Source of the DNA: Heptranchias perlo
Lineage: Eukaryota
Reading direction: 5' to 3'
NCBI RefSeq assembly: GCF_035084215.1
Contig: NC_090328.1
Coordinates: 5,642,001-5,706,000 of the forward strand
Length of the DNA stretch: 64,000 nucleotides
The notes beneath the pieces are model-generated. The model saw only the letters and a list, made by a program, of their open reading frames with translations. It was not told the DNA's origin and searched no databases. The position numbers were made by a program, and so were the translations under genes. Shown here piece after piece: positions 24,052-60,525 of the stretch; position 1 is the first letter of the stretch; each line of letters starts with the position of its first letter.

Positions 24052-24095
24052 CCTCTTACCGGACACCTGTTATCGGCAGAGTCACAACCTCGTAC

Positions 24096-24314
24096 CTTGA
24101 ACACCTCGGAGAAGAAGCCGGAGCCGATTTTCTCGCAGTAGAAGTCGTCGATCCTGGCCAAGGTGGAGACGGCGCTGCGGAGCGCCCTGTACGAGGAGGG
24201 TCGGAGGCGGCTGCAGCCGGGCATGGAGCCGAGCACCGGGGCCGAGTACGGTCCAGGGTCTGGTATCAGGACATCGCTGGACAGGTCCAGCCTGAGCGTG
24301 GATCCTCTCGCCAT
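24096..24314 (-). CDS. TESK1: Dual-specificity testis-specific protein kinase 1, first coding exon (73 codons)
   Basis: Encodes [36 protein letters not shown], matching the TESK1 N-terminus and Gly-rich loop. ATG in good context (GAGATGG); phase-0 donor AAG|GTACGA at 24096/24095. TESK2 is not fully excluded from one exon. Confidence 0.88.
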
Positions 24315-31370: not shown

Positions 31371-32903
31371 GTATTTAGTACTGAACTCCCCTCCGATAGT
31401 TATTCAGTATTAAGTACTCAGATAGTTATTTAGTATTTGTTGAGTAAAGCTGGGATTTTGAAGGGGAGTTTGATATTTGAAACAAAACAATTTAAAATGT
31501 AAACCAAGTGTCTGCCCAGGAGGAGCCAATGAAAATACACAAACAGCTGTTCATTTATTGCACTGTTCACAATGATTGCAGCTCCATCATGTAACTTTGA
31601 TACACTGACAGTGAAACCCCCGACTCACTCTGAGACCAGCGAGTGAAAGCTGACTGACCTCCTGCAATGACCTCCCGTCACAGCCGATGATTTGGAAACA
31701 GCAGCCAGTTCCCCGAGCAAAGCACCCGTAATAATTGGTGTTTCGATCCCGTGAACCCGTCATACCCACAGTCACCTCTGCTCCTTGACCTCTCCCACTA
31801 CTTACATCATAGGTAAAGCCTGTGGCCTATAAATTGGTCCGTTTTCCGGGCGCTAACCGGCCTACTCAACCCCCAATATGGCGGGCAGGAAGCACACACA
31901 CACATTTCAGGCCTGAAGTGCCCAGCCTGCCATATTGGTGCAGGAGAAAAACAACAGGCGTCCAGGGCCCAGGCCTGAAACAGGTGTTAGGCCCTTTGCA
32001 TATGGAAATAAGGAGTCTAATGCCTGGTTCAGGCTCTCACTGCAAGATTGGTTTGCCCTGTGGCAGCCTGCACTGGCATTCAGTGAATCCGGCTTTGGGA
32101 CAGCCTGCTACCTACAAGGTAAGTTTTAGAAATTTACTTACCTGAATGTGGAGTCAGGAGGAGCAGGACTGTTCGCCCTGACCCCAATTTAACAATCGCA
32201 CGCTCCCACTCCCAACCCTCCCTCCCCACCGATCTCTGTCACTCCCGAACCCCGGCCTCCTCTCCTGACCCCCGGCCTCCTCTCCCGACCCCCGACCTCC
32301 TCTCCCGACCCCCCGACCTCCTCTCCCGACCACCGACCCCCTCTCCCGACCCCCGACCTCCTCTCCCAACCACTGACCCCCTCTCCCGACCCCCGACCTC
32401 ATTTACCTGAGGATCGCTGCGACACGAGCAACGGCCCGATCTTGGTCTCCTCATCGCTGACTGGCTGTTCGCATCTCGCAAGCTCCATTACAATGAGGCC
32501 GAGGCCCAATATTGGGGGAGCACCATTCAGGTGCAGGGAGGCCTCACCTCCTCCTCTCCCGTCCCCTCCTCCTCCTCTCCCGTTCCCACTTCCCCTCCCC
32601 ACTCCCCCGCCCCATGCCCGAAATTGCGGTGCTGTAATTGTTACCCCTGTGTGTTTATACAGACTTGTATTGAGAATGATCGTATACGGATTTCATTGGA
32701 ATGACAGTGTGATGCAGAGCCGAGCCGAATAGCTGATTAACAGGAATAATTTTGCACTCAGGACCCAGGATCACTGGGTGAATGATCGCTAAAACGAGTA
32801 CAGGTTAAATTGCTGGATGAGATTCAGTGCGGGGGGCTGGGGGGGAGAGGAACAGCTTTATATTGCAGTTTGGACATTGGGTTTCTCAGCCTCCTGGGAT
32901 GAA

Positions 32904-32919
32904 TCATTCCTGCTCCTTC
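32904..32919 (-). CDS. Candidate terminal coding exon of the Siglec-15-like gene (R-KEQE*)
   Basis: Strong acceptor CTCACTTTAATTGTTCTTGTTTTATCCACAG|G; reading phase 2 from the TM exon gives R-K-E-Q-E-stop. No homology support. Confidence 0.3.
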
Positions 32920-37031: not shown

Positions 37032-40000
37032 TAATCTCCATGGATTCAGTATCGAGGGGTAATCTCCATGGATTCAGTATCCAGGGGTAATCTCCATGGA
37101 TTCAGTATCTATGGGTAATCTCTATGGATTCAGTATCTATGGGTAATCTCCATGGATTCAGTATCTACGGGTAATCTCTATGGATTCAGTATCTATGGGT
37201 AATCTCTATGGATTCAGTATCTACGGGTAATCTCTATGGATTCAGTATCTATGGGTAATCTCTATGGATTCAGTATCTACGGGTAATCGCCATGGATTCA
37301 GTATCTATGTGTAATCTCCATGGATTCAGTATCCATGGGTAATCTCTATGGATTCAGTGTCTATGGGTAATCTCCATGGATTCAGTATCTACGGGTAATC
37401 TCTATGGATTCAGTATCTACGGGTATTCGCCATGGATTCAGTATCTATGGGTAATCTGCATGGATTCAGTATCTATGGGTAATCTCTATGGATTCAGTAT
37501 CCATGGGTAATCTCTATGGATTCAGTATCTACGGGTATTCGCCATGGATTCAGTATCTATGGGTAATCTCCATGGATTCAGCATCAATGGGTAATCTCCA
37601 TGTGTTCAGTATCTATGGGTAATCTCCATGAATTCAGTATCTACGGGTAATCTCCATGCATTCAGTATCTATGGGTAATCTCCATGGATTCAGTATCTAC
37701 GGGTAATCTCCATGGATTCAGTATCTATGGGTAATCTCCATGGATTCAGTATCTATGGGTAATCTCCAAGGATTCAGGATCCATGGATAATCTCCATGGG
37801 TTCAGTATCTATGGGTAATCTCCATCGATTCAGGATCTATGGGTAATCTCTATGGATTCAGTATCTGTGGGTAATCTCCATGGATTCAGTATCGATGAGT
37901 AATCTCGACGGATTCAGTATCTATGAGTAATCTCCATGGATTCAGTAACGATGTGTAATCTCCATGGATTCAGTATCGATGAGTAATCTCCATGGATTCA
38001 GTTTCTATGGGTAATCTCCATGGATTCAGTATCTACGGGTAATCTCCACGGATTCAGTATCTATGGGTAATCAGTATGGATTCAGTATCTATGAGTAATC
38101 TCCATGGATTCAGTATCTACGGGTAATGTCCATGGATTCAGTTTCTATGGGTAATCTCAATGGATTCAGTATCTACGGGTAATCTCCACGGATTCAGCAT
38201 CCATGGGTAATCTGAATGGATTCAGTATCAATGGATAATCTCCATGGATTCAGTATCTATGAGTAATCTCCATAGATTCAGTATCTATGGGTGATCTCCA
38301 TGGATTCAGTATCTACGGGTAATCTCCACGGATTCAGTATCTACGGGTAATCTCCACGGATTCAGTATCTATGAGTAATCTCCATAGATTCAGTATCTAT
38401 GGGTGATCTCCATGGATTCAGTAGCTATGAGTAATCTCCATGGATTCAGTATCTATGGGTAATCTCCATGGATTCAGTATCTATGAGTAATCTCAATGCA
38501 TTTAGCATCTACGGGTAATCTCCATGGATTCAGTTTCTACGGGTAATCTCCACGGATTCAGTATCTATGGGTAATCTGTATGGATTCAGTATCCATGAAT
38601 AATCTCCATGGATTCAGTATCGATGGGTAATCTCCATGGATTCAGTATCTATGGGTAATCTCTATGGATTCAGTATCCATGGGTAATCTCTATGGATTCA
38701 GTATCTACGGGTATTCGCCATGGATTCAGTATCTATGGGTAATCTCCATGGATTCAGCATCAATGGGTAATCTCCATGTGTTCAGTATCTATGGGTAATC
38801 TCCATGAATTCAGTATCTACGGGTAATCTCCATGCATTCAGTATCTATGGGTAATCTCCATGGATTCAGTATCTACGGGTAATCTCCATGGATTCAGTAT
38901 CTATGGGTAATCTCCATGGATTCAGTATCTATGGGTAATCTCCAAGGATTCAGGATCCATGGATAATCTCCATGGGTTCAGTATCTATGGGTAATCTCCA
39001 TCGATTCAGGATCTATGGGTAATCTCTATGGATTCAGTATCTGTGGGTAATCTCCATGGATTCAGTATCGATGAGTAATCTCGACGGATTCAGTATCTAT
39101 GAGTAATCTCCATGGATTCAGTAACGATGTGTAATCTCCATGGATTCAGTATCGATGAGTAATCTCCATGGATTCAGTTTCTATGGGTAATCTCCATGGA
39201 TTCAGTATCTACGGGTAATCTCCACGGATTCAGTATCTATGGGTAATCAGTATGGATTCAGTATCTATGAGTAATCTCCATGGATTCAGTATCTACGGGT
39301 AATGTCCATGGATTCAGTTTCTATGGGTAATCTCAATGGATTCAGTATCTACGGGTAATCTCCACGGATTCAGCATCCATGGGTAATCTGAATGGATTCA
39401 GTATCAATGGATAATCTCCATGGATTCAGTATCTATGAGTAATCTCCATAGATTCAGTATCTATGGGTGATCTCCATGGATTCAGTAGCTATGAGTAATC
39501 TCCATGGATTCAGTATCTATGGGTAATCTCCATGGATTCAGTATCTATGAGTAATCTCAATGCATTTAGCATCTACGGGTAATCTCCATGGATTCAGTTT
39601 CTACGGGTAATCTCCACGGATTCAGTATCTATGGGTAATCTGTATGGATTCAGTATCCATGAATAATCTCCATGGATTCAGTATCGATGGGTAATCTCCA
39701 TGGATTCAGTATCTACGGGTAATCTCCATGGATTCAGTATCCACGGGTAATCTCCATGGATTCAGTATCTATGGGTAGTCTCCATGGATTCAGTGTCTAT
39801 GGGTAATCTCTATGGTTTCAGTATCTATGAGTAATCCCATGGATTCAGCATCTATGGGTAATCGCACTGGTTTCAGTATCTATGGGTAATCTCCATGGAT
39901 TCAGTATCGATGAGTAATCTCGATGGATTCAGTATCTATGAGTAATCACCATGGATTCAGTAACTATGGGTAATCTCCATGGATTCAGTATCGATGAGTA

Positions 40001-43000
40001 ATCTCCATGGATTCAGTTTCTATGGGTAATCTGACTGGTTTCTGTATCTGTGGGTAATCTCCATGGATTCAGTATCTATGGGTAATCTCCATGGATTCAG
40101 TATCCATGGGTAATCTCAATGGATTCAGTATCTATGGGTAATCTCTATGGATTCAGTATCTATGGGTAATCTCCATGGATTCAGTATCTATGGGTAATCT
40201 CTATGGATTCAGTATCTATGGGTAATCTCAATCGATTCAGTATCTATGGGTAATCTCTATGGATTCAGTATCTATGGGTAATCTCCATGGTTTCCGTATC
40301 TATGGGTAATCGCCATGGATTCAGTTTCGATGGGAAAACTCCATGGATTCAGTATCTATGGGTAATCTCCATGGATTCAGTATCTACGGGTAATCTTCAT
40401 GGATTCAGTATCTATGGGTAATCTCAATGGACTCAGTATCTATGGGTAATCTCCATGGATTCAGTATCTATGGATAATCTCCATGGGTTCAGTATCTATG
40501 GGTAATCTCCATGGATTCAGTATCTATGGGTAATCTCTATGGATTCAGTATCTACGGGTAATCTCCATGGATTCAGTATCTATGGGTAATCTCCATGGAT
40601 TCAGTATCAATGGGTAATCTCCATGGATTCAGTATCTACGGGTAATCTCCATGGATTCAGTATCTATGGGTAATCTCCATCGATTCAGTATCTACGGGTA
40701 ATCTCCATGGATTCAGTATCTATGGGTAATCTCCATGGATTCAGTATCTACGGGTAATCTCCATGGATTCAGTATCTCTGGGTAATCTCCATCGATTCAG
40801 TATCTATGGGTAATCTCTATGGATTCAGTATCTGTGGGTAATCTCCATGGATTCACTATCTGTGGGTAATCTCCATGGATTCAGTATCCATGGGTAATCT
40901 CCATGGATTCAGTATCTATGGATAATCTGCATGGATTCAGTATCTATGGGTAATCTCCATGGATTCAGTATCTATGGGTAATCTCCATGGATTCAGTATC
41001 TATGAGTAATCTCCATGGATTCATTATCTATGGGTAATCTCCATGGATACATTATCTATGAGTAATCTCAATGGATTTAGCATTGACGGGTAATCTCCAT
41101 GGATTCAGTTTCTACGGGTAATCTCCACGAATTCAGTATCTATGGGTAATCTGTATGGATTCAGTATCCATGAATAATCTCCATGGATTCAGTTTCTATG
41201 GGTAATCTCCATGGATTCAGTATCCATGGGTAATCTCCATGGATTCAGTATCTATGGGTAATCTCCATGGATTCAGTATCTATGGGTAATCTCTATGGTT
41301 TCAGTATCTATGGGTGATCTCTATGGATTCAGTATCGATGAGTAATCTCGATGGATTCAGTATCTATGAGTAATCTCCATGGATTCAGTAACTATGTGTA
41401 ATCTCCATGGATTCAGTATCGATGAGTAATCTCCGTGGATTCAGTTTCTATGGGTAATCTCCATGGATTCAGTATCTACGGGTAATCTCCACGGATTCAG
41501 TATCTATGGGTAATCAGTATGGATTCAGTATCCATGAGTAATCTCCATGGATTCAGTATCTACGGGTAATCTCCATGGATTCAGTTTCAATGGGTAATCT
41601 CCATGGATTCAGTATCTACGGGTAATCTCCACGGATTCAGTATCCATGGGTAATCTGAATGGATTCAGTATCTATGGGTAATCTCCATGGATTCAGTATC
41701 CATGGGTAATCTCCATGGATTCAGTATCTACGGGTAATCTCCATGGATTCAGTATCTATGGATAATCTCCATGGATTCAGTATCTATGAGTAATCTCCGT
41801 GGATTCAGTATCTATGGGTAATCTCCATGGATTCAGTAGCTATGAGTAATCTCCATGGATTCAGTATCTATGGGTAATCTCCATGGATTCAGTATCTATG
41901 AGTAATCTCAATGGATTTAGCATCTACGGGTAATCTCCATGGATTCAGTTTCTACGGGTAATCTCCACGGATTCAGTATCCATGAATAATCTCCATGGAT
42001 TCAGTATCTATGGGTAATCTCTATGGATTCAGTATCTATGGGTAAACTCTATGGTTTCAGTATCTATGAGTAATCCCATGGATTCAGCATCTATGGGTAA
42101 TCTCACTGGTTTCAGTATCTATGGGTAATCTCTATGGATTCAGTATCGATGAGTAATCTCCATGGATTCAGTATCTATGAGTAATCTCCATTGATTCAGC
42201 AACTATGGGTAATCTCCATGGATTCAGTATCGATGAGTAATCTCCATGGATTCAGTTTCTATGGGTAATCTCCATGGATTCAGTATCTATGGGTAAACTC
42301 TATGGTTTCAGTATCTATGAGTAATCCCATGGATTCAGCATCTATGGGTAATCTCACTGGTTTCAGTATCTATGGGTAATCTCTATGGATTCAGTATCGA
42401 TGAGTAATCTCCATGGATTCAGTATCTCTGAGTAATCTCCATTGATTCAGCAACTATGGGTAATCTCCATGGATTCAGTATCGATGAGTAATCTCCATGG
42501 ATTCTGTATCTACGGGTAATCTCCACAGATTCAGTATTTATGGCTAATCAGTATGGATTCAGTATCCATGAGTGATCTCCATGGATTCAGTATCTACGGG
42601 TAATCTCCACGGATTCAGTATCTATGGGTAATCTGACTGGTTTCAGTATTTATGGATAATCTCTATGGATTCAGTATCGATGAGTAATCTCCATGGATTC
42701 AGTATCTATGAGTAATCTCCATTGATTCAGCAACTATGGGTAATCTCCATGGATTCAGTATCTATGGGTAATCTCCATGGATTCAGTATCTATGGGTAAT
42801 CTCCATGGATTCAGTATCTATGGGTCAGCTCAATGGATTCAGTATCTATGGGTAATCTCCATGGATTCAGTATCTATGGGTAATCTCCATGGATTCAGTA
42901 TCTATGGGAAAACTCCATGGATTCAGTATCTATGGGTAATCTCGATGGATTCAGTATCTATGGGTAATCTCCATGGATTCAGTTTCTATGGGTAATCTCC

Positions 43001-44059
43001 ATGGATTCAGTATCTATGGGTAATCTCCATGGATTCAGTATCTATGGGTAATCTCCATGGATTCAGCATCTATGGGTAATCTCCATGGATTCAGTATCTA
43101 TGGGTTATTTCCATGGATTCAGTATCTATGGGTAATCTCCATGGATTCAGTATCCATGGGTAATCTCCATGGATTCAGTATCTATGGGTTATTTCCATGG
43201 ATTCAGTATCTATGGGTAATCTCCATGGATTCAGCATCTATGGGTAATCTCCATGGATTCAGTATCTATTAGTTATTTCCATGGATTCAGTATCTATGGG
43301 TAATCTCCATGGATTCAGTATCCATGGGTAATCTCCATGGATTCAGTATCTATGGGTTATTTCCATGGATTCAGTATCTATGGGTAATCTCCATGGACTC
43401 AGTATATATGAGTAATCTCCATGGACTCAGTATCTATGGGTAATCTCCATGGATTCAGTCTCTCTGGGTAATCTCCATGGATTCAGTATCTATGGGTAAT
43501 CTCCATGGACTCAGTATATATGAGTAATCTCCATGGACTCAGTATCTATGGGTAATCTCCATGGATTCAGTATCTATGGGTAATCTCCATGGACTCAGTA
43601 TCTCTGGGTAATCTCCATGGATTCAGTATCGATGGGTAATCTCCATGGATTCAGTATCTATGGGTAATCTCCATGGATTCAGTATCTATGGGTAATCTCC
43701 ATGGACTCAGTATCTCTGGGTAATCTCCATGGATTCAGTATCGATGGGTAATCTCCATGGATTCAGTATCTATGGGTAATCTCCATGGACTCAGTATCTA
43801 TGGGTAATCTCCATGTGTTCAGTATCTATGGGTAATCTCCATGGATTCAATATCTATGGGTAATCTCCATGGATTCAGTATCTATGGGTAATCTCCATGG
43901 ATTCAGTATCTACGGGTAATCTCCATGGATTCAGTATCTACGGGTAATCTCCATGGATTCAGTATCTATGGGTAATCTCCATGGATTCAGTATCTACGGG
44001 TAATCTCCATGGATGCAGTATCGATGGGTAATCTCCATGGATTCAGTATCTCTGGGTAC

Positions 44060-46116: not shown

Positions 46117-46216
46117 CTGGTTTTGTCCCTGAGTAAAATGATCCACATCACTAAAAGGGCGAGGAGTTTCAATCCAAGTGAAATGGACAACATCGCAATG
46201 GGGAAAAGCTCTGTAA
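46117..46216 (-). CDS. Transmembrane exon of the Siglec-15-like receptor, with intramembrane Lys
   Basis: Pyrimidine tract + CAG acceptor (phase 1; alternative in-frame AG 6 nt downstream) and donor CAG|GTATGT (phase 2). Encodes TELFPIAMLSISLGLKLLALLVMWIILLRDKT; LGLKLL parallels the LGFKAL of mammalian Siglec-15. Confidence 0.82.
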
Positions 46217-47002: not shown

Positions 47003-47149
47003 TCACTTAATCAAAACCTGTAGGACTGTAGGCAAGTGTGACACTCGACTGTAGGGCAGAAATATGGTGATTGACGTGATGGAGCTGAGCTAGACAAGGT
47101 ATATGGGCTGTGAATGAAGAACGACAAACGGATAGTAACAATAATATAG

Positions 47150-50100
47150 TATCTCACAGTGACAGGTTAATACTGTAGTATAGTGAGAGGTTAATACTGT
47201 AGTACTTACAGTGACAGGGTTAATACTGTAGTACTTACAGTGACAGGGTTAATTCTGTAGTACTTACAGTGACAGGGTTAATACTGTAGTACTTACAGTG
47301 ACGGGGGTATATACTATAGTACTTACAGTGATGGGGGTATATACTATAGTACTTACAGTGATGGGGTATATACTATCGTACTTACAGTGACAGGGTTAAT
47401 ACTGTAGTACTTACAGTGACAGGGTTAATTCTGTAGTACTTACAGTGACAGGGTTAATACTGTAGTACTTACAGTGACGGGGGTATATACTATAGTACTT
47501 ACAGTGATGGGGGTATATACTATAGTACTTACAGTGATGGGGTATATACTATCGTACTTACAGTGACGGGGGTATATACTATAGTACTTACAGTGACGGG
47601 GGTATATACTATAGTACTTACCGTGATGGGGTCTCTACTATAGTACTTACAGTGATGGGGTATACACTATAGTACTTACAGTGACGGGGTATATACTATA
47701 GTACTTACAGTGATGGGGCATATACTATAGTACATACAGTGACAGAGGTAAATACTCCAGTACTTACAGTGATGGGGCATATACTATAGTACTTACAGTG
47801 ACGGGGGTAAATACTATAGTACTTACCGTGATGGGGCATATACTATAGTACTTACAGTGACAGGGGTAAATACTATAGTACTTACAGTGATGGGGCATAT
47901 ACTATAGTACTTACAGTGATGGGGCATATACCATAGTACTTACAGTGACAGGGGTAAATACTATAGTATTTACAGTGATGGGGCATATACTATAGTACTT
48001 ACAGTGATGGGGGTATATAATATAGCACTTACAGTGATGGGGGTATATACTATAGTACTTACAGTGACGGGGTAAATACTATAGTACTTACAGTGATGGG
48101 GCATATACTATAGTACTTACAGTGATGGGGGTATATATTATAGTACTTACCGTGATGGGGTCTCTACTATAGTACTTACAGTGATGGGGTATATACTATA
48201 GTACTTACAGTGATGGGGTATATACTATAGTACTTACAGTGAAAGGGGTATATACTCTAGTACTTACAGTGAAAGGGGTATATACTCTAGTACTTACAGT
48301 GACAGGGTATATAATATAGTACTTACAGTGACGGGTAAATACTATAGTACTTACAGTGACCGTGGTAATTACAATAGTACTCACAGTGATGGGTAAATAC
48401 TATAGTACTCACAGTGTCAGGGGCAAATACTATAGTAGTTACAGTGACAGGGGTAAATACTATAGTACTTACAGTGACAGGGCAAATACTGTAGTACTTA
48501 CAGTGACAGGAGTAAATACTATAGTACTTACAGTGACAGGTAAATACTATAGTACTGACAGTGATGGGGTAAATACTATAGTACTTACGGTGACAGGAGT
48601 AAATACTATAGTACTTACAGTGATGGGTAAATACTATAGTACTTACAGTGACAGGAGTAAATACTATAGTACTTACCGTGACAGGAGTAAATACTATAGT
48701 ACTTACAGTGATGGGTAAATACTATAGTACTTACGGTGACAGGAGTAAATACTATAGTACTTACAGTGATGGGTAAATACTATAGTACTTACAGTGACAG
48801 GAGTAAATACTATAGTACTGACAGTGACAGGAGTAAATACTATAGTACTTACAGTGATGGGTAAATACTATAGTAGTTACAGTGACAGGAGTAAATACTA
48901 TGGTAATTACTGTGACAGGGTAAATACTATAGAACTTACAGTGACAGGAGTAAATACTATAGTAGTTACAGTGACAGGAGTAAATACTATAGTACTTACA
49001 GTGACAGGAGTAAATACTATAGTAGTTACAGTGACAGGACTAAATACTATTGTACTTACTGTGACGGGGCAAATACTATAGTACTTACAGTGACAGGTAA
49101 ATACTATAGTACTCACAGTGTCAGGGGAAAATACTATAGTAGTTACAGTGACAGGGGTAAATACTATAGTACTTACAGTGACAGGGCAAATACTGTAGTA
49201 CTTACAGTGACAGGAGTAAATACTATAGTACTTAAAGTGACAGGTAAATACTATAGTACTTACAGTGATGGGGTATATACTATAGTACTTACAGTGACAG
49301 GGTATATACTATAGTACTTACAGTGAAAGGGGTATATACTCTAGTACTTACAGTGACAGGGTATATAATATAGTACTTACAGTGACGGGGGTAAATACTA
49401 TAGTACTTGAAGTGACAGGTAAATACTATAGTACTTACAATGGTAGGTGTAAATATTATAGTACTCACAGTGAAAGGGGTATATACTATAGTACTCACGG
49501 TAGCAGGGGTAAATACTATAGTAATTACAGTGGTCAGGGTAAATACTATATTACTTACAGTGATGGGTATATAATATAATAGTTACAGTGATGTGGTATA
49601 TACTATAGTACTTACAGTGGTAGGTGTAAATATTATAGTACTCACAGTGAAAGGGGTAAATACTATAGTACTCACGGTAACATGGGTAAATACTATAGTA
49701 CTTACAGTGACAGGTAAGTACTATAGTACTTACAGTGATGGGTAAATACTATAGTACTTACAGTGATGGTTAAATACTATAGTACTTACAGTGACCGGGG
49801 TAATTACAATAGTACTCACAGTGATGGGTCAATACTATAGTACTCACAGTGTCAGGGGCAAATACTATAGTAGTTACAGTGACAGGGGTAAATACTATAG
49901 TACTTCCAGTGACAGGGCAAATACTGTAGTACTTACAGTGACAGGAGTAAATACTATAGTACTGACAGTGACGGGGTAAATACTATAGTACTTACGGTGA
50001 CAGGAGTAAATACTATAGTACTTACAGTGATGGGTAAATACTATAGTACTTACAGTGACAGGGCAAATACTGTAGTACTTACAGTGACATGAGTAAATAC

Positions 50101-52627
50101 TATAGTACTTACAGTGACCGGGGTAATTACAATAGTACTCACAGTGATGGGTAAATACTATAGTACTCACAGTGTCAGGGGCAAATACTATAGTAGTTAC
50201 AGTGACAGGGGTAAATACTATAGTACTTCCAGTGACAGGGCAAATACTGTAGTACTTACAGTGACAGGAGTAAATACTATAGTACTGACAGTGACGGGGT
50301 AAATACTATAGTACTTACGGTGACAGGAGTAAATACTATAGTACTTACAGTGATGGGTAAATACTATAGTACTTACAGTGACAGGGCAAATACTGTAGTA
50401 CTTACAGTGACATGAGTAAATACTATAGTACTTACTGTGACGGGGTAAATACTATAGTACTTACAGTGACAGGAGTAAATACTATAGTACTTACCGTGAT
50501 GGGTAAATACTATAGTACTTACAGTGACAGGGGTAAATACTATCGTACTTACAGTGACAGGAGTAAATACTATAATACTTACAGTGATGGGTAAATACTT
50601 TAGTACTTACAGTGACAGGTAAATACTATAGTACTTACAGTGACAGGAGTAAATACTCTAGTAGTTACAGTGACAGGACTAAATACTATTGTACTTACTG
50701 TGACGGGGCAAGTACTATAGTACTGACAGTGACAGGAGTAAATACTATAGTACTTACAGTGATGGGTAAATACTATAGTAGTTGCAGTGACAGGACTAAA
50801 TACTATTGTACTTACTGTGACGGGGCAAATACTATAGTACTTACAGTGACAGGTAAATACTATAGTACTCACAGTGTCAGGGGAAAATACTATAGTAGTT
50901 ACAGTGACAGGGGTAAATACTATAGTACTTACAGTGACAGGGTATATAATATAGTACTTACAGTGACGGGGGTAAATACTATAGTACTTGCAGTGACAGG
51001 TAAATACTATAGTACTTACAATGGTAGGTGTAAATATTATAGTACTCACAGTGAAAGGGGTATATACTATAGTACTCACGGTAACAGGGGTAAATACTAT
51101 CGTAATTACAGTGGTCAGGGTAAATACTATATTACTTACAGTGATGGGTATATAATATAGTAGTTACAGTGATGTGGTATATACTATAGTACTTACAGTG
51201 GTAGGTGTAAATATTATAGTACTCACAGTGAAAGGGGTAAATACTATAGTACTCACGATAACATGGGTAAAAACTATAGTACTTACAGTGATGGGTAAAT
51301 ACTATAGTACTTACAGTGACCGGGGTAATTACAATAGTACTCTCAGTGATGGGTAAATACTATAGTACTCACAGTGTCAGGGGCAAATACTATAGTAGTT
51401 ACAGTGACAGGGGTAAATACTATAGTACTTACAGTGACAGGGCAAATACTGTAGTACTTACAGTGACAGGAGTAAATACTATAGTAATTACAGTGACAGT
51501 TAAATACTATAGTACTGACAGTGACGGGGTAAATACTATAGTACTTACGGTACAGGAGTAAATACTATAGTACTTACAGTGATGGGTAAATACTATAGTA
51601 CTTACAGTGACAGGAGTAAAGACTATCGTAGTTACAGTGACAGGAGTAAATACTATAGTACTTACTGTGACAGGGTAAATACTATAGCACTTACAGTGAC
51701 AGGAATAAATACTGTAGTAGTTACAGTGACAGGAGTAAATACTATAGTACTTACTGTGACGGGGTAAATACTATAGTACTTAAAGTGACACGAGTAAATA
51801 CTATAGTACTTACCGTGATGGGTAAATACTATAGTACTTACAGTGACAGGGGTAAATACTATAGTACTTACAGTGACAGGACTAAATACTATTGTACTTA
51901 CTGTGACGGGGCAAATACTATAGTACTTACAGTGACAGGAGTAAATATTATAGTAGTTACAGTGACAGGACTAAATACTATTGTACTTACTGTGACGGGG
52001 TAAGTACTATAGTACTTACAGTGACAGGAGTAAATACTATAGTAGTTACAGTGACAGGAGTAAATACCGTAGTACTTACAGTGCCAGGAGTAAATACTAT
52101 AGTACTTACAGTGACAGGAGTAAATACTATAGTACTTACAGTGACAGGAGTAAATACTATAGTTCTTACAGTGACAGGAGTAAATACTATAGTACTTACA
52201 GTGACAGGGGTAAATACTATAGTACTTACAGTGACGGGGTATATAGTACTTACAGCGACAGGAGTAAATACTATAGTACTCAGTGTCAGGGGTAAATACT
52301 ATAGTAGTTACAGTGACAGGAGTAAATACTATAGTACTCACAGTGTCAGGGGTAAATACTATAGTACTTACAGTGACAGGAGTAAATATTATAGTACTCA
52401 CAGTGTCATGGGTAAATACTACAGTACTTACAGTGACAGGAGTAAATACTATAGTATTCAGTGTCGGGGTAAATACTATAGTACTTACAGTGACAGGAGT
52501 AAATACTATAGTACTTACAGTGACAGGAGTAAATATTATAGTACTTACAATGGTAGGTGTAAATATTATAGTACTCACAGTGAAAGGGGTATATACTATA
52601 GTACTCATGGTAACAGGGGTAAATACC
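47150..52627. repeat. About 30-bp AT-rich minisatellite, about 185 copies
   Basis: Unit GGAGTAAATACTATAGTACTTACAGTGACA (28-30 bp variants). Confidence 0.99.
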
Positions 52628-53199: not shown

Positions 53200-54440
53200 T
53201 AGACAAGCTCCCAATCAGTGTCATTCCCGATGCCAAGGGAGGAAAGAACAAAAGGGAAGGACTCTGATAGGGTGGAGGGCAGGAGTGATTAAATTACAAA
53301 AGGGATGATGATGGTGCAAGGCAAGGAGGGTGGGAATGGGAGAAGTAAAGAAACAAAAGATTGGTCAGGAGTAGCTGTGAATGGCAGCAGCAGAACCATT
53401 ACCAGCACCTACTGTCCGAAAAAATGGGAGCAGTGGTTATGATCTGAAGTTATTGAAATCAATGTTAAGTCCAGAAGGTTGTAAAGTCCCTAATTGAAAG
53501 ATGAGGTGCTGTTTCTTGAGCTTCTGTTGAGCTTCATTGGAACAGTGTAAGAGGCCGAGGACAGAGGGGTCAGAGTGGGAATGGGACGGGGGATTAAAAT
53601 GGCAAACGACCGGCAGGTCAGGGTCTCACTTGCAGACAGAGCGGAGGTGTTCAGCAAAGCGATCACCCAATCTGTGTTTGGTCTCCCCAGTGTAGAGGAG
53701 ACCGCATAGTGAGCAGTGAATACAGTATAGTAAATTGAAAGAAGTGCAAGTAAATCACTGTTTCACCTGGAAGGAGTGTTTGGGGCCGTGGATGGTGGGA
53801 AGGGAGGAGGTGAAAGGGCAGGTGTTGCATCTCCTGCGCTCGCACGGGAAGGTGCCGTGGGGAGGAGAGCGGGTGTTGGGGGTGATGGAAGAGTGGACCA
53901 GGGTGTCACGGAGGGAGCGGTCCCTTCGGGATACTGAAAGGGGAGAGGAGGGGAAGATGGGATCGCGCTGGAGGTGGCGGAAATGGCGGAGGATGATACG
54001 TTGAATGTGGAGGCTGGTGGGGTGGAAGGTGAGGACAAGGGGGACCCTATCATGGTTCTGGGAGGGGAGGGAAGGGGTGAGGGCAGAAGTGAGGGAAATA
54101 GGATGGACACGGTCGAGGCCCCTGTCAACTACAGTGGAGGGAAATCCTCGGTTGAGGATAAAGGAAGACCTAGCAGAAGCACTGGTGTGGAAGGTGACAT
54201 TGTCAGAACAGATGCGACGGAGACGGAGAAACTAGGAGAAGGGAATAGAATCCTCACAGGAAGCAGGGTGGGAGGAAGTGTAATCAAGGTAGCTGTGGGA
54301 GTCGGTGGGCTTATAATAAATATTGGTTGACAGCCTATCACCAGAAATGGAGATAGAGAAGTCGAGGAAGGGAAGGGAAGAGTCGGAGATGGACCAGGTG
54401 AAGACAACGGAAGGGTGGAAATTGGAAGCAAAGTTGATTT
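53200..54440 (-). mobile_element. Penelope-like (Neptune-type) element fragment, copy A
   Basis: Minus-strand RT-thumb/linker (RVPLVLTFHP, RDRSLRDTLV), CxxxxCxxC motif and GIY-YIG-like region. Confidence 0.85.
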
Positions 54441-54442
54441 TT

Positions 54443-55201
54443 TACATCAACGTCAGAGAGCAAATGGGGCCTCGGTTTAACGCCTCATCCGAAAGACAGG
54501 ACCGCCGACAGTGCAGCACTCCCTTAGTACTGCCCCACGGACAGTGCAGCACTCCCTCAGTACAGCCCCTCCGACATTGCAGCACTCCCTCAGCTCTGCC
54601 CCACCGACAGTGCAGCACTCCCTCAGTACCGCCCCTCCGACAGTGCAGCACTCCCTCAGTACCACCCCTCCGACAGTGCAGCACTCCCTCAGTACCACCC
54701 CTCCGACAGTGCAGCACTCCCTCAGTACCGCCCCTCCGACAGTGCAGCACTCCCTCAGTACCACCCCTCCGACAGTGCAGCACTCCCTCAGTATCTCCCC
54801 TCCGACAGTACAGCACTCCCTCAGTATCTCCCCTCCGACAGTACAGCATTCCCTCAGTATCTCCCCTCCGACAGTGCAGCACTCCCTCAGTATCTCCCCT
54901 CCGACAGTACAGCACTCCCTCAGTATCTCCCCTCCGACAGTACAGCGCTCCCTCAGTACTGCCCCTCCGACAGTACAGCACTCCCTCAGTATCTCCCCTC
55001 CGACAGTGCAGCACTCCCTCAGTATCTCCCCTCCGACAGTGCAGCACTCCCTCAGTATCTCCCCTCCGACAGTACAGCACTCCCTCTGTACTGGCACTGG
55101 AGCAACAGCCTGGATTTTGTGCTCAAATCTCTGGAATGGGGACTTGAACCTTTGATCTTCTGACTCAGAGCGACAGTGCTCCCCACTGAGCCATGGCTGA
55201 C
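54443..55201 (-). mobile_element. Deu-type SINE 5' part with an internally amplified 33-bp minisatellite
   Basis: Head TGGCTCAGTGG/GGTTCAAGTCC on the minus strand; unit CCGACAGTGCAGCACTCCCTCAGTACTGCCCCT, about 18 copies. Confidence 0.9.
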
Positions 55202-55275
55202 GAGTGTTTTCTGTTACACCGTCCCCCTCACTGTACAACCTCTCAACACTGGAGAATGTGGGAATGTTTTCTTAC

Positions 55276-55638
55276 TTTGAAAGACCTGCAGCCGTGTCTC
55301 ATTCTGGACCAGATAGTCATTAGGTTTATTTTTGTTCCATCCCTTGTGCTCCACCAGACACAGGTAAGTGCTGCTGTTCTTCACACTCAGCTGGTTTATC
55401 CTGGTTGAGGCGTTTCCCTTCATTGGGTCCCCGACGAGCTCGTACCGATTTCCACCGTTTACCGTAGTCCACGATCCGTTCGATTGGGCTCTAAATGTGA
55501 CTTTGTGTTGGTAGGGCTCCTTCCTCATCCATGTAACACTGAGCTGGAGGGTGATCCCACTGGGCGGTGTGAACATACAGGGCAATGTAACCGAACCTCC
55601 CTCGGTCCCACTCACCACTGGGACATTTCCACCAGCAG
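55276..55638 (-). CDS. Ig V-set exon (domain 3, duplicate of domain 2) of the Siglec-15-like receptor
   Basis: Acceptor TTTGTCCTTTCCTCAG|, donor CAAA|GTAAGA, 363 nt, phase 1/1; GGSVTLPC...W...YLC V-set motifs. Confidence 0.88.
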
Positions 55639-56121
55639 CTGAGGAAAGGACAAACATCAGAATGGATCAGTGTCTTGATGAGAACTTTAATTTATTTCAG
55701 TTCAGTGCTCTCCCTGTGGCCCAGTAGGTAGAGGCCCTGCCCGGTGTAGTTCTCAGCCACTAAAGATTCTGTCTTGATCCTACCTACCTGCATCACACTG
55801 TATTTGTTTAGGTTAAATGCCATTTGCCATTGGTCCCAGAAACGCCAAGAAGATTCCATCGATTTCAGGGGCAATATCGGAGGAGGGTTAAGGTACAGGT
55901 AACGGCACCTCCGACAGTGCAGCACTCTCTCAGTACTGCCCTGAAGGGTGAGCTTAGCAGCAGTGATCCAATCGGCAATGTCTCCCTGAGATCCACCCAC
56001 CAATTCTCCACAGGTCCAACCCGCCCCCATCAGCTTTGGGCTGGACACTGCAGACCCACAGAACTGAGACTGGGCGGTGGGAATCGCTGATTTCAATAAT
56101 ATAAGAACAAATCTCTCGCAT

Positions 56122-57068
56122 CGAAAGATGAGGTGCTGTTCCTCGAGATTACGTTGAGCTTTATTGGAACAATGCAGGAGTCCGAGGACAGAGGGGTCAG
56201 AGTGGGAATGGGACGGGGGATTAAAATGGCAATCGACCGGCAGGTCAGGGTCTCACTTGCGGACAGAGCGGAGGTGTTCAGCAAAGTGATCACCCAATCT
56301 GCGTCTGGTCTCCCCAGTGTAGAGGAGACCGCATTGTGAGCAGTGAATACAGTATAGTAAATTGAAAGAAGTGCAAGTAAATCACTGTTTCACCTGGAAG
56401 GAGTGTTTGGGGCCGTGGATGGTGGGAAGGGAGGAGGTGAAGGGGCAGGTGTTGCATCTCCTGCGCTCGCACGGGAAGGTGCCGTGGGGAGGAGAGCGGG
56501 TGTTTGGGGTGATGGAAGAGTGGACCAGGGTGTCACGGAGGGAGCGGTCCCTTCGGGATACTGAAAGGGGAGAGGAGGGGAAGATGGGATCGCGCTGGAG
56601 GTGGCGGAAATGGCGGAGGATGATACGTTGAACGTGGAGGCAGGTGGGGTGGAAGGTGAGGACAAGGGGGACCCTATCATAGTTCTGGGAGGGAAGGGAA
56701 GGGGTGAGGGCAGAAGTGAGGGAAATAGGACAGACACGGTCGAGGCCCCTGTCAACTACAGTGGAGGGAAATCCTCGGTTGAGGATAAAGGAAGACCTAG
56801 CAGAAGCACTGGTGTGGAAGGTGACATTGTCAGAACAGATGCGACGGAGACGGAGAAACTGGGAGAAGGGAATAGAATCCTCACAGGAAGCAGGGTGGGA
56901 GGAAGTGTAATCAAGGTAGCTGTGGGAGTCAGTGGGCTTACAATAAATATTGGTTGACAGCCTATCACCAGAAATGGAGATAGAGAAGTCGAGGAAGGGA
57001 AGGGTGGAGTCGGAGATGGACCAGGTGAAGACAACGGAAGGGTGAAAATTGGAAGCAAAGTTGATTTT
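56122..57068 (-). mobile_element. Penelope-like fragment, recombinant copy (left part like copy B, right part like copy A)
   Basis: 56122-56190 matches 58880-58950; from about 56190 onward it matches 53563-54440. Confidence 0.88.
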
Positions 57069-57069
57069 T

Positions 57070-57959
57070 TACATCAACGTCAGAAAGCAAATGGGGCCTC
57101 GGTTTAACGCCTCATCTGAAAGACAGGACCGCCGACAGTGCAGCACTCCCTCAGTGCTGCTCCACGGACAGTGCAGCACTCCCTCAGTACTGCCCCTCCG
57201 ACAGTGCAGCACTCCCTCAGTACCACCCCTCCGACAGTGCAGCACTACCTCAGTACCTCCGCTCCGACAGTGCAGCACTCCCTCTGTACTACCCCTCCGA
57301 CAGTACAGCCCTCCCTCTGTACTGCCCCTCCGACAGTGCAGCACTCCCTCTGTACTGCCCCTCCGACAGTGCAGCACTCCCTCTGTACTACCCCTCCGAC
57401 AGTACAGCCCTCCCTCAGTACTGCCCCTCCGACAGTGCAGCACTCCCTCAGTATCTCCCCTCCGACAATGCAGCACTCCCTCTGTACTGCCCCTCCGACA
57501 GTACAGCACTCCCTCTGTAACTCCCCTCCGACAGTGCAGCACTCCCTCAGTATCTCCCCTCCGACAGTGCAGCACTCCCTCAGTACCTCCCCTCCGACAG
57601 TGCAGCACTCCCTCTGTACTGCCCCTCCGACAGTACAGCACTCCCTCTGTAACTCCCCTCCGACAGTGCAGCACTCCCTCAGTATCTCCCCTCCGACAGT
57701 ACAGCGCTCCCTCAGTATCTCCCCTCCGACAGTGCAGCACTCCCTCAGTATCTCCCCTCCGACAGTGCAGCACTCCCTCTGTACTGCCCCTCCGACAGTG
57801 CAGCACTCCCTCAGTATCTCCCCTCCGACAGTACAGCGCTCCCTCTGTACTGCACTGGAGCAACAGCCTGGATTTTGTGCTCAAATCTCTGGAATGGGGA
57901 CTTGAACCTTTGATCTTCTGACTCAGAGCGACAGTGCTCCCCACTGAGCCATGGCTGAC
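57070..57959 (-). mobile_element. Duplicated Deu-type SINE with 33-bp minisatellite (about 22 copies)
   Basis: Paralogue of 54443-55201, about 131 bp longer. Confidence 0.9.
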
Positions 57960-58033
57960 GAGTGTTTTCTGTTACACCGTCCCCCTCACTGTACAACCTC
58001 TCGACACTGGAGAATGTGGGAATGTTTTCTTAC

Positions 58034-58396
58034 TTTGAAAGACCTGCAGCCGTGTCTCATTCTGGACCAGATATTCATTAGGTTTATTTTTGTTCCATCC
58101 CTTGTGCTCCACCAGACACAGGTAAGTGCTGCTGTTCTTCACACTCAGCTGGTTTATCCTGGTTGAGGCGTTTCCCTTCATTGGGTTCCCGACGAGCTCG
58201 TACCGATTTCCACCGTTTACCGTAGTCCACGATCCGTTCGATTGGACTCTAAATGTGACTTTGTGTTGGTAGGGCTCCTTCCTCATCCATGTAACACTGA
58301 GCTGGAGGGTGATCCCACTGGGCGGTGTGAACATACAGGGCAATGTAACCGAACCTCCCTCGGTCCCACTCACCACTGGGACATTTCCACCAGCAG
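58034..58396 (-). CDS. Ig V-set exon (domain 2) of the Siglec-15-like receptor
   Basis: Same splice sites as 55276-55638; 363 nt, phase 1/1. SVTLPCMFTPP..VTWMRKEPY..RYELVGNP..YLCLVE resembles the Siglec-15 V domain. Confidence 0.9.
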
Positions 58397-58879
58397 CTGA
58401 GGAAAGGACAAACATCAGAATGGATCAGTGTCTTGATGAGAACTTTAATTTATTTCAGTTCAGTGCTCTCCCTGTGGCCCAGTAGGTAGAGGCCCTGCCC
58501 GGTGTAGTTCTCAGCCACTAAAGATTCTGTCTTGATCCTACCTACCTGCATCACACTGTATTTGTTTTGGTTAAATGCCATTTGCCATTGGTCCCAGAAA
58601 TGCCAAGAAGATTCCATCGATTTCAGGGGCAATATCGGAGGAGGGTTAAGGTTCAGGTAACGGCACCTCCGACAGTGCAGCACTCTCTCAGTACTGCCCT
58701 GAAGGGTGAACTTAGCAGCAGTGATCCAATCGGCAATGTCTCCCTGAGATCCACCCACCAATTCTCCACAGGTCCAACCCGCCCCCATCAGCTTTGGGCT
58801 GGACACTGCAGACCCACAGAACTGAGACTGGGCGGTGGGAATCGCTGATTTCAATAATATAAGAACAAATCTCTCGCAT

Positions 58880-59625
58880 CGAAAGATGAGGTGCTGTTCC
58901 TCGAGATTACGTTGAGCTTCATTGGAACAATGCAGGAGTCCGAGGACAGAGGTCAGAGTGGGAGTGGGACAGAGAACTAAAATGGCAAGCGACCAGAATC
59001 TCTGGGTCAATACTGCGGACTGAGTGGAGGTGTTCAACAAGGCGATCACCCAGTCTGCGTTTGGTCTCCCCAGTGTAGAGGAGACCTCATTGTGAGTTGG
59101 AAGAAGTGCAAGTAAATTGCTGTTTCACCTGGAAGGAGTGTTTGGGGCCCTGGACGGTGGGAAGGGAGGAGGTGAAGGGGCAGGTGTTGCATCTCCTGCG
59201 CTCACACGGGAAGGTGCCGTGGGGAGGAGAGCGGGTGTTGGGGGTGATGGAAGAGTGGACCAGGGTGTCACGGAGGGAACGGTCTCTTCGGAATGCTGAG
59301 AGGGGAGGGGTGGGAAAGAGATATTTGGCGATGCCATCGGCTGGAAGTGGTGGGTAATGGCGGAAGATGATCCGTTGAACCTGGAGGCTGGTGGGGTAGA
59401 AGGTGAGGACAAGGGGGACCCTATCGTGGTACTGGAAGGGTGGGGGATGTGTGAGGGCAGAAGTGCGGGAAATGGGACGGACACGGTCGAGGGCCCTGTG
59501 AACCACAGTGGAGGGGTATCCTCAGTTGAGGAGAAAGGAAGACGTATCGGATATATCGGAAGCACTGGTGTGGAAGGTGGCATCATCGGAACAGATGTAA
59601 CGGAGATGGAGAAACTGGGAGTAAT
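58880..59625 (-). mobile_element. Penelope-like fragment, copy B
   Basis: ORF 59087-59506: RVPLVLTFYP...FRRDRSLRDTLVHS...PCERRRCNTC...FTCTSSN. Confidence 0.85.
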
Positions 59626-60132
59626 GTGAGAAGTCATGTGAGACTATCACAGGTCTGTACACCCGACCAAGTGGTCTGTTCTCAATCACCTGCGAGACTC
59701 CGTTATTGCTGTTTGGGAAGATCTTTGAAAAGCTGAAGACTTTGAAAATCTGGACTTAATTCCAACTCTATAAACAGGTTCATTTTCCAGTGGTTCAGAA
59801 ACAGGGAAGGTTTAGCACCAGCCTGGCACACAGAGACAGTCTCGACCTTGCCCAGAGACACTGAAGTTTATTTTACTAATTTACTCCGCTCCTCTCCTGA
59901 ATTGCTTGGCTTATGTCTTTGGCATCTAGATAACATCGGTAAGACCAAGGTAACATATTGCTAGACGAGGAAAGACCAAGGTCCATCTACTTCACCTTCT
60001 ACCATCCCGATCCCCTTCAAAGCCCGGGGCTGCTGAGAGCTTATTGATCTGTGGGGCTCAGGACCAGACCAGGTGGAGCCTTTACCCATTGAACTATTGG
60101 GGCAGGTACAGCCCCTGAACATTGTTCCTTAC

Positions 60133-60525
60133 CTCTCACTCCCAGGCTCGTTAGTTCCAATGATTCAAATTTGCCAATATTGAGCTCCACATGACACTTA
60201 TAATAACCGCTGTCCATCTGGTTCAGTCCTTCCATCATTATCGAGGCATCGTTGTCGCTGAGATTCCCCACGAATCTGTATCGATTCCCGCCGTCCTTCT
60301 GTATCACATTCTCACACAGCTTACTCCGTGAATGGCCGGGACCATAATATATACAGTTAAAAGGAACGTGTCTGCTCAATGAGTCCTTTTTGAACCATAT
60401 CACAGAGCCACTGACTGTACGACCAGGGAATGGGGCGGTAAACCTGCACGGCAAGACAGCAGACTGCCCTTCCTCAGCAATCACTTCATCCGGGCCGTGC
60501 ATTGTCCAACCATTAAGATTATACT
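60133..60525 (-). CDS. Ig V-set exon (domain 1) of the Siglec-15-like receptor
   Basis: Acceptor (CT)n-CCCCACACAG|, donor GAG|GTAAGG, 393 nt, phase 1/1. WTMHGPDEVIAEEGQSAVLPCRFT, the FNC...KLC extra Cys pair, RYRFVGN and YKCHVEL..KFES align by eye with the Siglec-15 V-set domain. Confidence 0.92.

Follow-up and report, generated by a model that had tools for sequence, protein, structure and literature searches.

The 64,000-nucleotide stretch analysed here (the window; positions 5,642,001 to 5,706,000 of contig NC_090328.1 of the sevengill shark Heptranchias perlo) carries the V-set, membrane and tail exons of a minus-strand receptor gene, termed gene B. The same contig, C4 below, holds the related genes A and C and further genes of the cluster. 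Gene B consists of a leader, V1, V2, V2', a membrane segment with a lysine and a short tail (Table 1), a V-V-V layout in which no C2 exon was found. The three V-set exons, encoding domains D1 to D3, have AG/GT ends and phase-1 junctions. D1 contains YKCHVEL and cysteines at residues 26, 57, 70 and 110. D2 and D3 each contain YLCLVEH, two cysteines and four N-glycosylation sequons (NGS, NAS, NSS and NET). The exon reading agrees with the first-pass annotation of the window on these motifs, on the sequons and on the extra cysteine pair kept in D1. The near-identity of D2 and D3 (3 of 363 bases differ) points to a single domain that was duplicated. An upstream V exon with an arginine had been raised as a possibility; no further V exon, arginine-bearing or other, was found between the leader and D1 in a search to the window end and 30 kb beyond it.

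Gene B and its near-identical relatives

Transcript support comes from contigs only, obtained from four sequencing runs of one sample and presumed to be RNA. A 333-base contig piece matches D1 of gene B at 60186-60518 with 0 differences, and the splice joint 58396-60133 between D1 and V2 is present in contigs of two of the four runs. A base private to D3 is also present in contigs of two of the four. Two letters private to D2 are not among the contig letters listed, which does not show that they are absent, since rare variants are lost from contigs. Contigs connect the lysine exon both to a V2 end and to the tail exon, a joint that cannot separate gene B from gene C because the exon is letter-identical in both. 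Letters of A, B and C types all occur in the contigs of this single sample. One transcript with the order V1-V2-V2'-membrane(Lys) is predicted. The lysine-bearing membrane exon, which the first-pass annotation did not mention, and the short tail without a tyrosine motif are likely of the activating type. In a database model lacking the membrane exon, the tail exon is read in an alternative frame. Contigs also link a gene-C-type V1 end straight to the lysine exon at window position 46216, skipping V2. Two long minisatellite arrays flank the membrane exon in introns, at 37032-44058 (28-bp units, 7.0 kb) and 47140-52626 (30-bp units, 5.5 kb).

The genome holds three close copies of D1, all on C4: in gene A (V1 at 4.97 Mb), in gene B and in gene C (V1 at 5.81 Mb). 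Gene A (C4:4.94-4.97 Mb) lies about 730 kb from gene B. Its leader, V1 and V2 are followed by a membrane segment without charge and by a tail bearing three tyrosine motifs of the immunoreceptor tyrosine-based inhibitory motif (ITIM) type. In gene C (C4:5.80-5.84 Mb), V1 and V2 are combined with the lysine exon. The frames of genes B and C are open, and both genes appear in spliced contigs. The identity of gene B to gene A is 95% for the V1 domain and 93% for V2; at the base level, V1 differs at 12 of 393 positions. Sixteen V1 bases vary among the copies. Two of them set gene A apart from both B and C, and one of the two lies in the codon aligned with Arg143 of Siglec-15, which is CGT (Arg) in gene A and CAT (His) in genes B and C. 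Genes A and B are likely paired-receptor twins, with near-identical predicted ectodomains and opposite membrane and tail types.

RefSeq proteins XP_067838504-6 and XP_067838210-3 cover exons of this gene set under the automatic names pIgR-like, P0-like and uncharacterized. Isoforms X1/X2 (XP_067838504/5; C4:4,943,022-5,725,840, minus strand) fuse the V exons of gene B with V2, membrane and ITIM exons that belong to gene A, at a distance of 730 kb, and are likely a chimeric model. The join hides the lysine type of gene B, and the layout given here corrects a model that presents gene B as inhibitory.

Table 1. Features of gene B and of other receptor genes on contig C4. Locations without a contig prefix are window positions.
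Feature	Location	Strand	Remarks
V1 exon (D1)	60133..60525	-	Siglec-15-type V-set; extra Cys pair, A-strand Trp and G-strand Phe kept
His codon CAT	60191..60193	-	Siglec-15 Arg143 site; CGT (Arg) in the ITIM paralogue (gene A); CpG transition
V2 exon (D2)	58034..58396	-	second V class; two Cys, four sequons
V2' exon (D3)	55276..55638	-	tandem copy of D2; 3/363 bases differ
Tandem duplication	53493..59621		unit of ~2.76 kb with D2/D3 and a 33-bp minisatellite; copies 92-94% identical
Transmembrane exon, 100 bases	46117..46216	-	Lys codon 46169-46167, ...SLGLKLLALL...; cf. Siglec-15 ...ALGFKALLLL...
Last coding exon, short tail	32858..32919	-	RKEQE-stop after the membrane exon; no tyrosine motif
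Leader exon of gene B	C4:5,725,781-5,725,840	-	19.8 kb past the window end
Second paired subfamily (V-V-C2)	C4:5,995,000-6,000,100; C4:6,076,000-6,082,800	+; -	Lys-type and tyrosine-motif members
V-C2 gene	C4:6,034,415-6,037,123	+	330 kb from gene B; uncharged membrane segment
Further V-V gene	C4:6,112,900-6,139,300	-	Arg, uncharged membrane segment, tyrosine motifs

Relation of D1 to Siglec-15

The best sequence match of D1 among solved structures was Siglec-15 (E = 2e-10), and a profile of the family matched Siglec-15 with E = 1e-26, the next Siglec following at 1e-9. The predicted fold of D1 (mean predicted local distance difference test score, pLDDT, of 75.5) retrieved Siglec-15 (7zoz) at Foldseek rank 1 (E = 4.5e-8). 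Structural comparison of the D1 model with 7zoz gave Z = 15.5 and a root-mean-square deviation of 2.5 over 119 residues; the runner-up reached Z = 13.7. Sequence alignment places the D1 histidine at Arg143, which forms a salt bridge to sialic acid and whose R143A replacement abolishes binding (PMC10264397). These results bear out the earlier proposal that D1 is a Siglec-15-type domain without the essential arginine. The four D1 cysteines sit at places aligned with the disulfide cysteines of the Siglec-15 N-terminal V-set (C64-C142 and C95-C104), and the sites of the further sugar contacts W44 and Y154 (PMC10264397) carry Trp and Phe in D1. Among the relatives, Trp is present in 47 of the 47 rows that cover the site and Phe in 47 of 59. 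Lys274 in the membrane segment of Siglec-15 binds DAP12 (PMC6941304), and gene B has a transmembrane lysine of this kind, for which adaptor binding is predicted.

Tree analysis groups the shark V1 domains with Siglec-15 and Siglec-15-like domains of bony vertebrates (Shimodaira-Hasegawa-like approximate likelihood ratio test, SH-aLRT, 95), and PILR and two other Siglec-like exons fall apart from this group. Siglec-15 proper of bony vertebrates forms a clade in which no shark row was identified. When gull Siglec-15 and another Siglec-15-like protein served as queries, the best genome match of each lay in the C4 cluster, which holds the closest Siglec-15 relatives of this genome. SLC14A and ATP5F1A, neighbours of tetrapod SIGLEC15, both lie on contig C1, 25-28 Mb apart. 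No V exon was found in the 200 kb after the last SLC14A copy; EPG5 was not located, hence this is no proof that a separate Siglec-15 gene is absent there. Gene B is a Siglec-15 relative and is not filed as Siglec-15 proper because two defining features fail, the arginine and the C2 domain.

NKp30, PILR, TIM and pIgR were considered as identities and all ranked below Siglec-15 by sequence, tree and structure. PILR has a single V domain compared with three in gene B, and the PILR-like exons of this genome lie on contig C38 and fall in a separate clade. These V exons occupy C38:24.22-24.25 Mb; similar proteins occur in sawfish and caecilians. NKp30 (NCR3) is marked by a J-like FGxG in strand G and by linkage to the major histocompatibility complex. 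Strand G of D1 reads GKFESLELTSLGV, without FGxG, some carpet-shark members read FGSG, and the NKp30 match was confined to D1 residues 6-68 (E = 2e-5). JAML-type two-V proteins matched the full-length model through layout only.

The arginine site and membrane type in sharks and rays

The V1-V2 layout was found in 22 shark and ray species by protein database searches and cluster look-ups. Survey rows comprised the first V1 of each model, with identical V1s within a species merged and gene B added; two chimeric models and one misassigned V2 row were left out. The arginine was replaced in 11 of 34 Lys-type rows, in 0 of 32 rows with an uncharged membrane segment and in 3 of 16 rows without a membrane segment. 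Fisher's test of the Lys-type against the uncharged rows gave p = 4e-4, a value inflated by relatedness. Near-complete first domains gave 10/27 Lys-type and 0/30 uncharged replacements. In rows gathered after the hypothesis, the arginine was replaced in four of six Lys-type and in none of four uncharged rows, two of these four repeating earlier rows. The site is mostly Arg in the combined set, with replacement in 15 of 40 Lys-type and 0 of 34 uncharged first domains. The first-pass annotation had proposed a shift in ligand specificity away from sialoglycans. This does not hold family-wide, gene A and all 32 uncharged first domains of the initial survey keeping the arginine; what stands is a loss located in Lys-type copies.

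Changes in the Lys class were counted at 27 columns whose conservation among uncharged members reaches 95% or more. The arginine column was the most replaced of these (10/27 rows), and the next column was changed in 5/27 rows, conservatively. A second conserved arginine column was changed in two of the 27 rows. Seven residues, His, Tyr, Cys, Gly, Gln, Lys and Ser, replace the arginine. In a quick tree of 69 rows and 128 columns, with many forks open, Lys and ITIM members cluster by species, a pattern that gene conversion or recent duplication would produce, and the arginine losses fall in at least seven lineages. Losses on the same side in seven of seven lineages have odds near 0.01.

The V2 domains form a clade of their own that includes a chimaera member (SH-aLRT 96). 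Their Arg143 site is Leu, Gln or Val in 59 of 59 family sequences, so D2 and D3 did not lose an arginine recently. The first-pass claim that the arginine is replaced in all three domains is thus correct for D1 and fails for D2 and D3. By sequence, D2/D3 arose through recent duplication within an ancient second V class. Mean identity is 61% in V2 and 57% in V1, and mean sequon number is 3.1 and 2.3, respectively; the NET sequon occurs in only seven of the 59 V2 sequences. V2-type repeats recur in other family members. A stalk role of V2 is plausible, and the idea of a glycosylated spacer is a weak possibility.

A second paired subfamily with a V-V-C2 layout, subfamily II, also lies on C4 (Table 1). 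Its Lys-type member in Heptranchias perlo has Leu at the arginine site and a first V exon that is split by a stop in the assembly; the tyrosine-motif member keeps the arginine and has a duplicated second V exon. Leu is present in eight of nine Lys-type rows across sharks and rays, likely reflecting one old event, and Arg in three of three rows without a membrane segment. Subfamily II is a partial replicate of the arginine asymmetry.

The V-C2 gene of the cluster matches human Siglec-15 over its full length (E = 3e-31), the best of three cluster proteins tested, and similar proteins occur in several other sharks and rays. The V1 of the further V-V gene is the genome's best match to bird Siglec-15. 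Models with a V1-V2-V1-V2 layout are present in bamboo and epaulette sharks, both carpet sharks. Tyrosine-motif V-V relatives were seen in newt, and a distant multi-V match in lamprey. Directly downstream of gene B within the cluster, window positions 24066-24200 (minus strand) hold the first coding exon of a kinase, presumably TESK-type and likely TESK1, with one paralogue on contig C9; a PDB search with this exon gave no match.

Interpretation of the asymmetry

Gene B is probably an activating member of a Siglec-15-related paired family of sharks. With histidine in place of arginine, it is predicted not to recognise self sialic acid, which its ITIM twin likely senses. More tentatively, and with slightly less than even confidence, we propose that sharks and rays have a paired-receptor system built from Siglec-15, and that selection repeatedly (at least seven times, and once anciently in subfamily II) stripped the sialic-acid-binding arginine from its activating partner only. 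The products would be decoys, blind to sugar, that act against microbes exploiting the inhibitory partner. The lysine in the membrane segment of gene B would recruit a DAP12-type adaptor, and gene A would bind self sialoglycans and damp the cell. Gene conversion may keep the outer surfaces of the twins alike, and a microbe that holds on to the inhibitory receptor by protein contacts would then set off the activating twin as well. Without the arginine, the activating twin would be neither triggered by self nor masked by sugars of its own cell. V2 would be a fixed stalk domain, its duplication likely lengthening the receptor. The mechanism is modelled on the counterbalance theory and on PILR-beta and SIRP-beta, whose self binding is weaker; activating twins typically have the lower affinity for self ligands (PMC3533184).

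Several observations weigh against this reading of gene B and its family. Arginine is kept in 25 of the 40 Lys-type domains, so its loss is not required, and its codon is a CpG codon, so His and Cys arise cheaply. In one Hemiscyllium model whose membrane segment is uncharged, the second V1, the only complete one, has Cys at the site; the counts took first domains only. The three of 16 models that lack both a membrane segment and the arginine are not classifiable by membrane type, and some Lys-type rows look decayed. In subfamily II, the Lys-type member of Callorhinchus retains the arginine, and the six uncharged rows divide into four with and two without it. Besides the inflation of the Fisher values, the database models contain flaws, and the tree was built by a quick method from 128 columns. 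We know of no microbial ligand of the family. The adaptor gene was not located: a DAP10 family search of the genome was blank, its control likewise gave no match, and DAP12 was not searched. Zebrafish Siglec-15 bound the tested glycans poorly (PMC7226832), which cautions against taking sugar binding by gene A for granted.

The main rival is relaxed constraint, in which the activating copies are dispensable and do not last long, and the arginine, encoded by a mutable CpG codon, is the first residue to decay, with no adaptive meaning. The CGT to CAT change is a CpG transition, and decayed-looking Lys-type copies exist: the Narcine row sits on a very long branch, the Rhincodon row has no F-strand Cys, and the subfamily II V exon of Heptranchias perlo is interrupted by a stop. 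Null alleles of the human activating receptors Siglec-14 and -16 are also frequent (PMC6288428). We nevertheless regard relaxed constraint as unlikely. The other 26 conserved columns changed 17 times in total, compared with ten changes at the arginine column alone, and the second conserved arginine, which has a CpG codon in Heptranchias perlo, was largely spared. Replacement by Ser, Gly or Lys is not a CpG transition, genes B and C retain open frames and spliced contigs, and the Leu form of subfamily II is maintained in eight shark and ray rows.

The arginine could instead serve a protein ligand or the fold, as in TIM-1, which has YCCRVE at the same position, and the asymmetry would then be the loss of another self ligand. 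The lack of a C2 domain and the separation of the cluster from the contig of SLC14A and ATP5F1A are compatible with this account. It is quite improbable given that Siglec-15 is the best sequence and structure match of D1, that the W44 and Y154 contact sites are kept, and that V1 joins Siglec-15 apart from PILR in the tree. The least probable account is the first-pass version, in which gene B gained a new non-sialic ligand and D2/D3 act as a glycosylated spacer. The histidine at the arginine site, the duplicated, sequon-bearing D2/D3 and the V2-type repeats of other members are in its favor. However, the 12 base differences from the arginine-bearing V1 of gene A do not point to a remodelled surface, replacement by seven different residues resembles loss of function and not gain, and V2 matches V1 in conservation.

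Siglec-15, a drug target, is known as a single activating receptor that is conserved. The human protein (7zoz) shares with D1 and gene B a V-set with an extra disulfide pair, the Trp and aromatic contacts and a lysine in a similar membrane segment. It differs in having Arg143 in place of His, a V-C2 instead of a V-V-V layout, and one activating gene compared with a multigene paired cluster. The expansion of shark Siglec-15 relatives into an on/off family suggests an old origin of forms with an ITIM and of forms with several V domains. A literature search that had most subscription journals outside its reach found no paper on the shark family, so a prior description is possible. The family is not described in the main texts of the genome papers on whale shark and elephant shark.

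The primate pairs Siglec-5/14 and Siglec-11/16 resemble the shark twins in their near-identical ectodomains with ITIM or DAP12-type ends, and are kept alike by gene conversion (PMC6288428, PMC5701461). In the primate pairs, conversion holds the glycan preference of both partners similar (PMC5701461), and chimpanzee Siglec-5 and -14 both carry the arginine mutation (PMC6288428), whereas in sharks the inhibitory partner keeps the arginine and the activating partner drops it. PILR-alpha and PILR-beta are closer to the reading proposed here, the activating twin binding the self ligand weakly (2.2 compared with 85 in the affinity table of a review), and SIRP-beta does not bind the CD47 ligand of SIRP-alpha (PMC3533184). 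The SIRP ligand is a protein and not a sugar. If selected loss from the activating partner is correct, the shark family would differ from the primate paired Siglecs, and its repeated, activating-only loss of one residue would offer an unusually clean natural experiment on why self recognition is lost in activating twins, making the counterbalance theory testable at a single residue.

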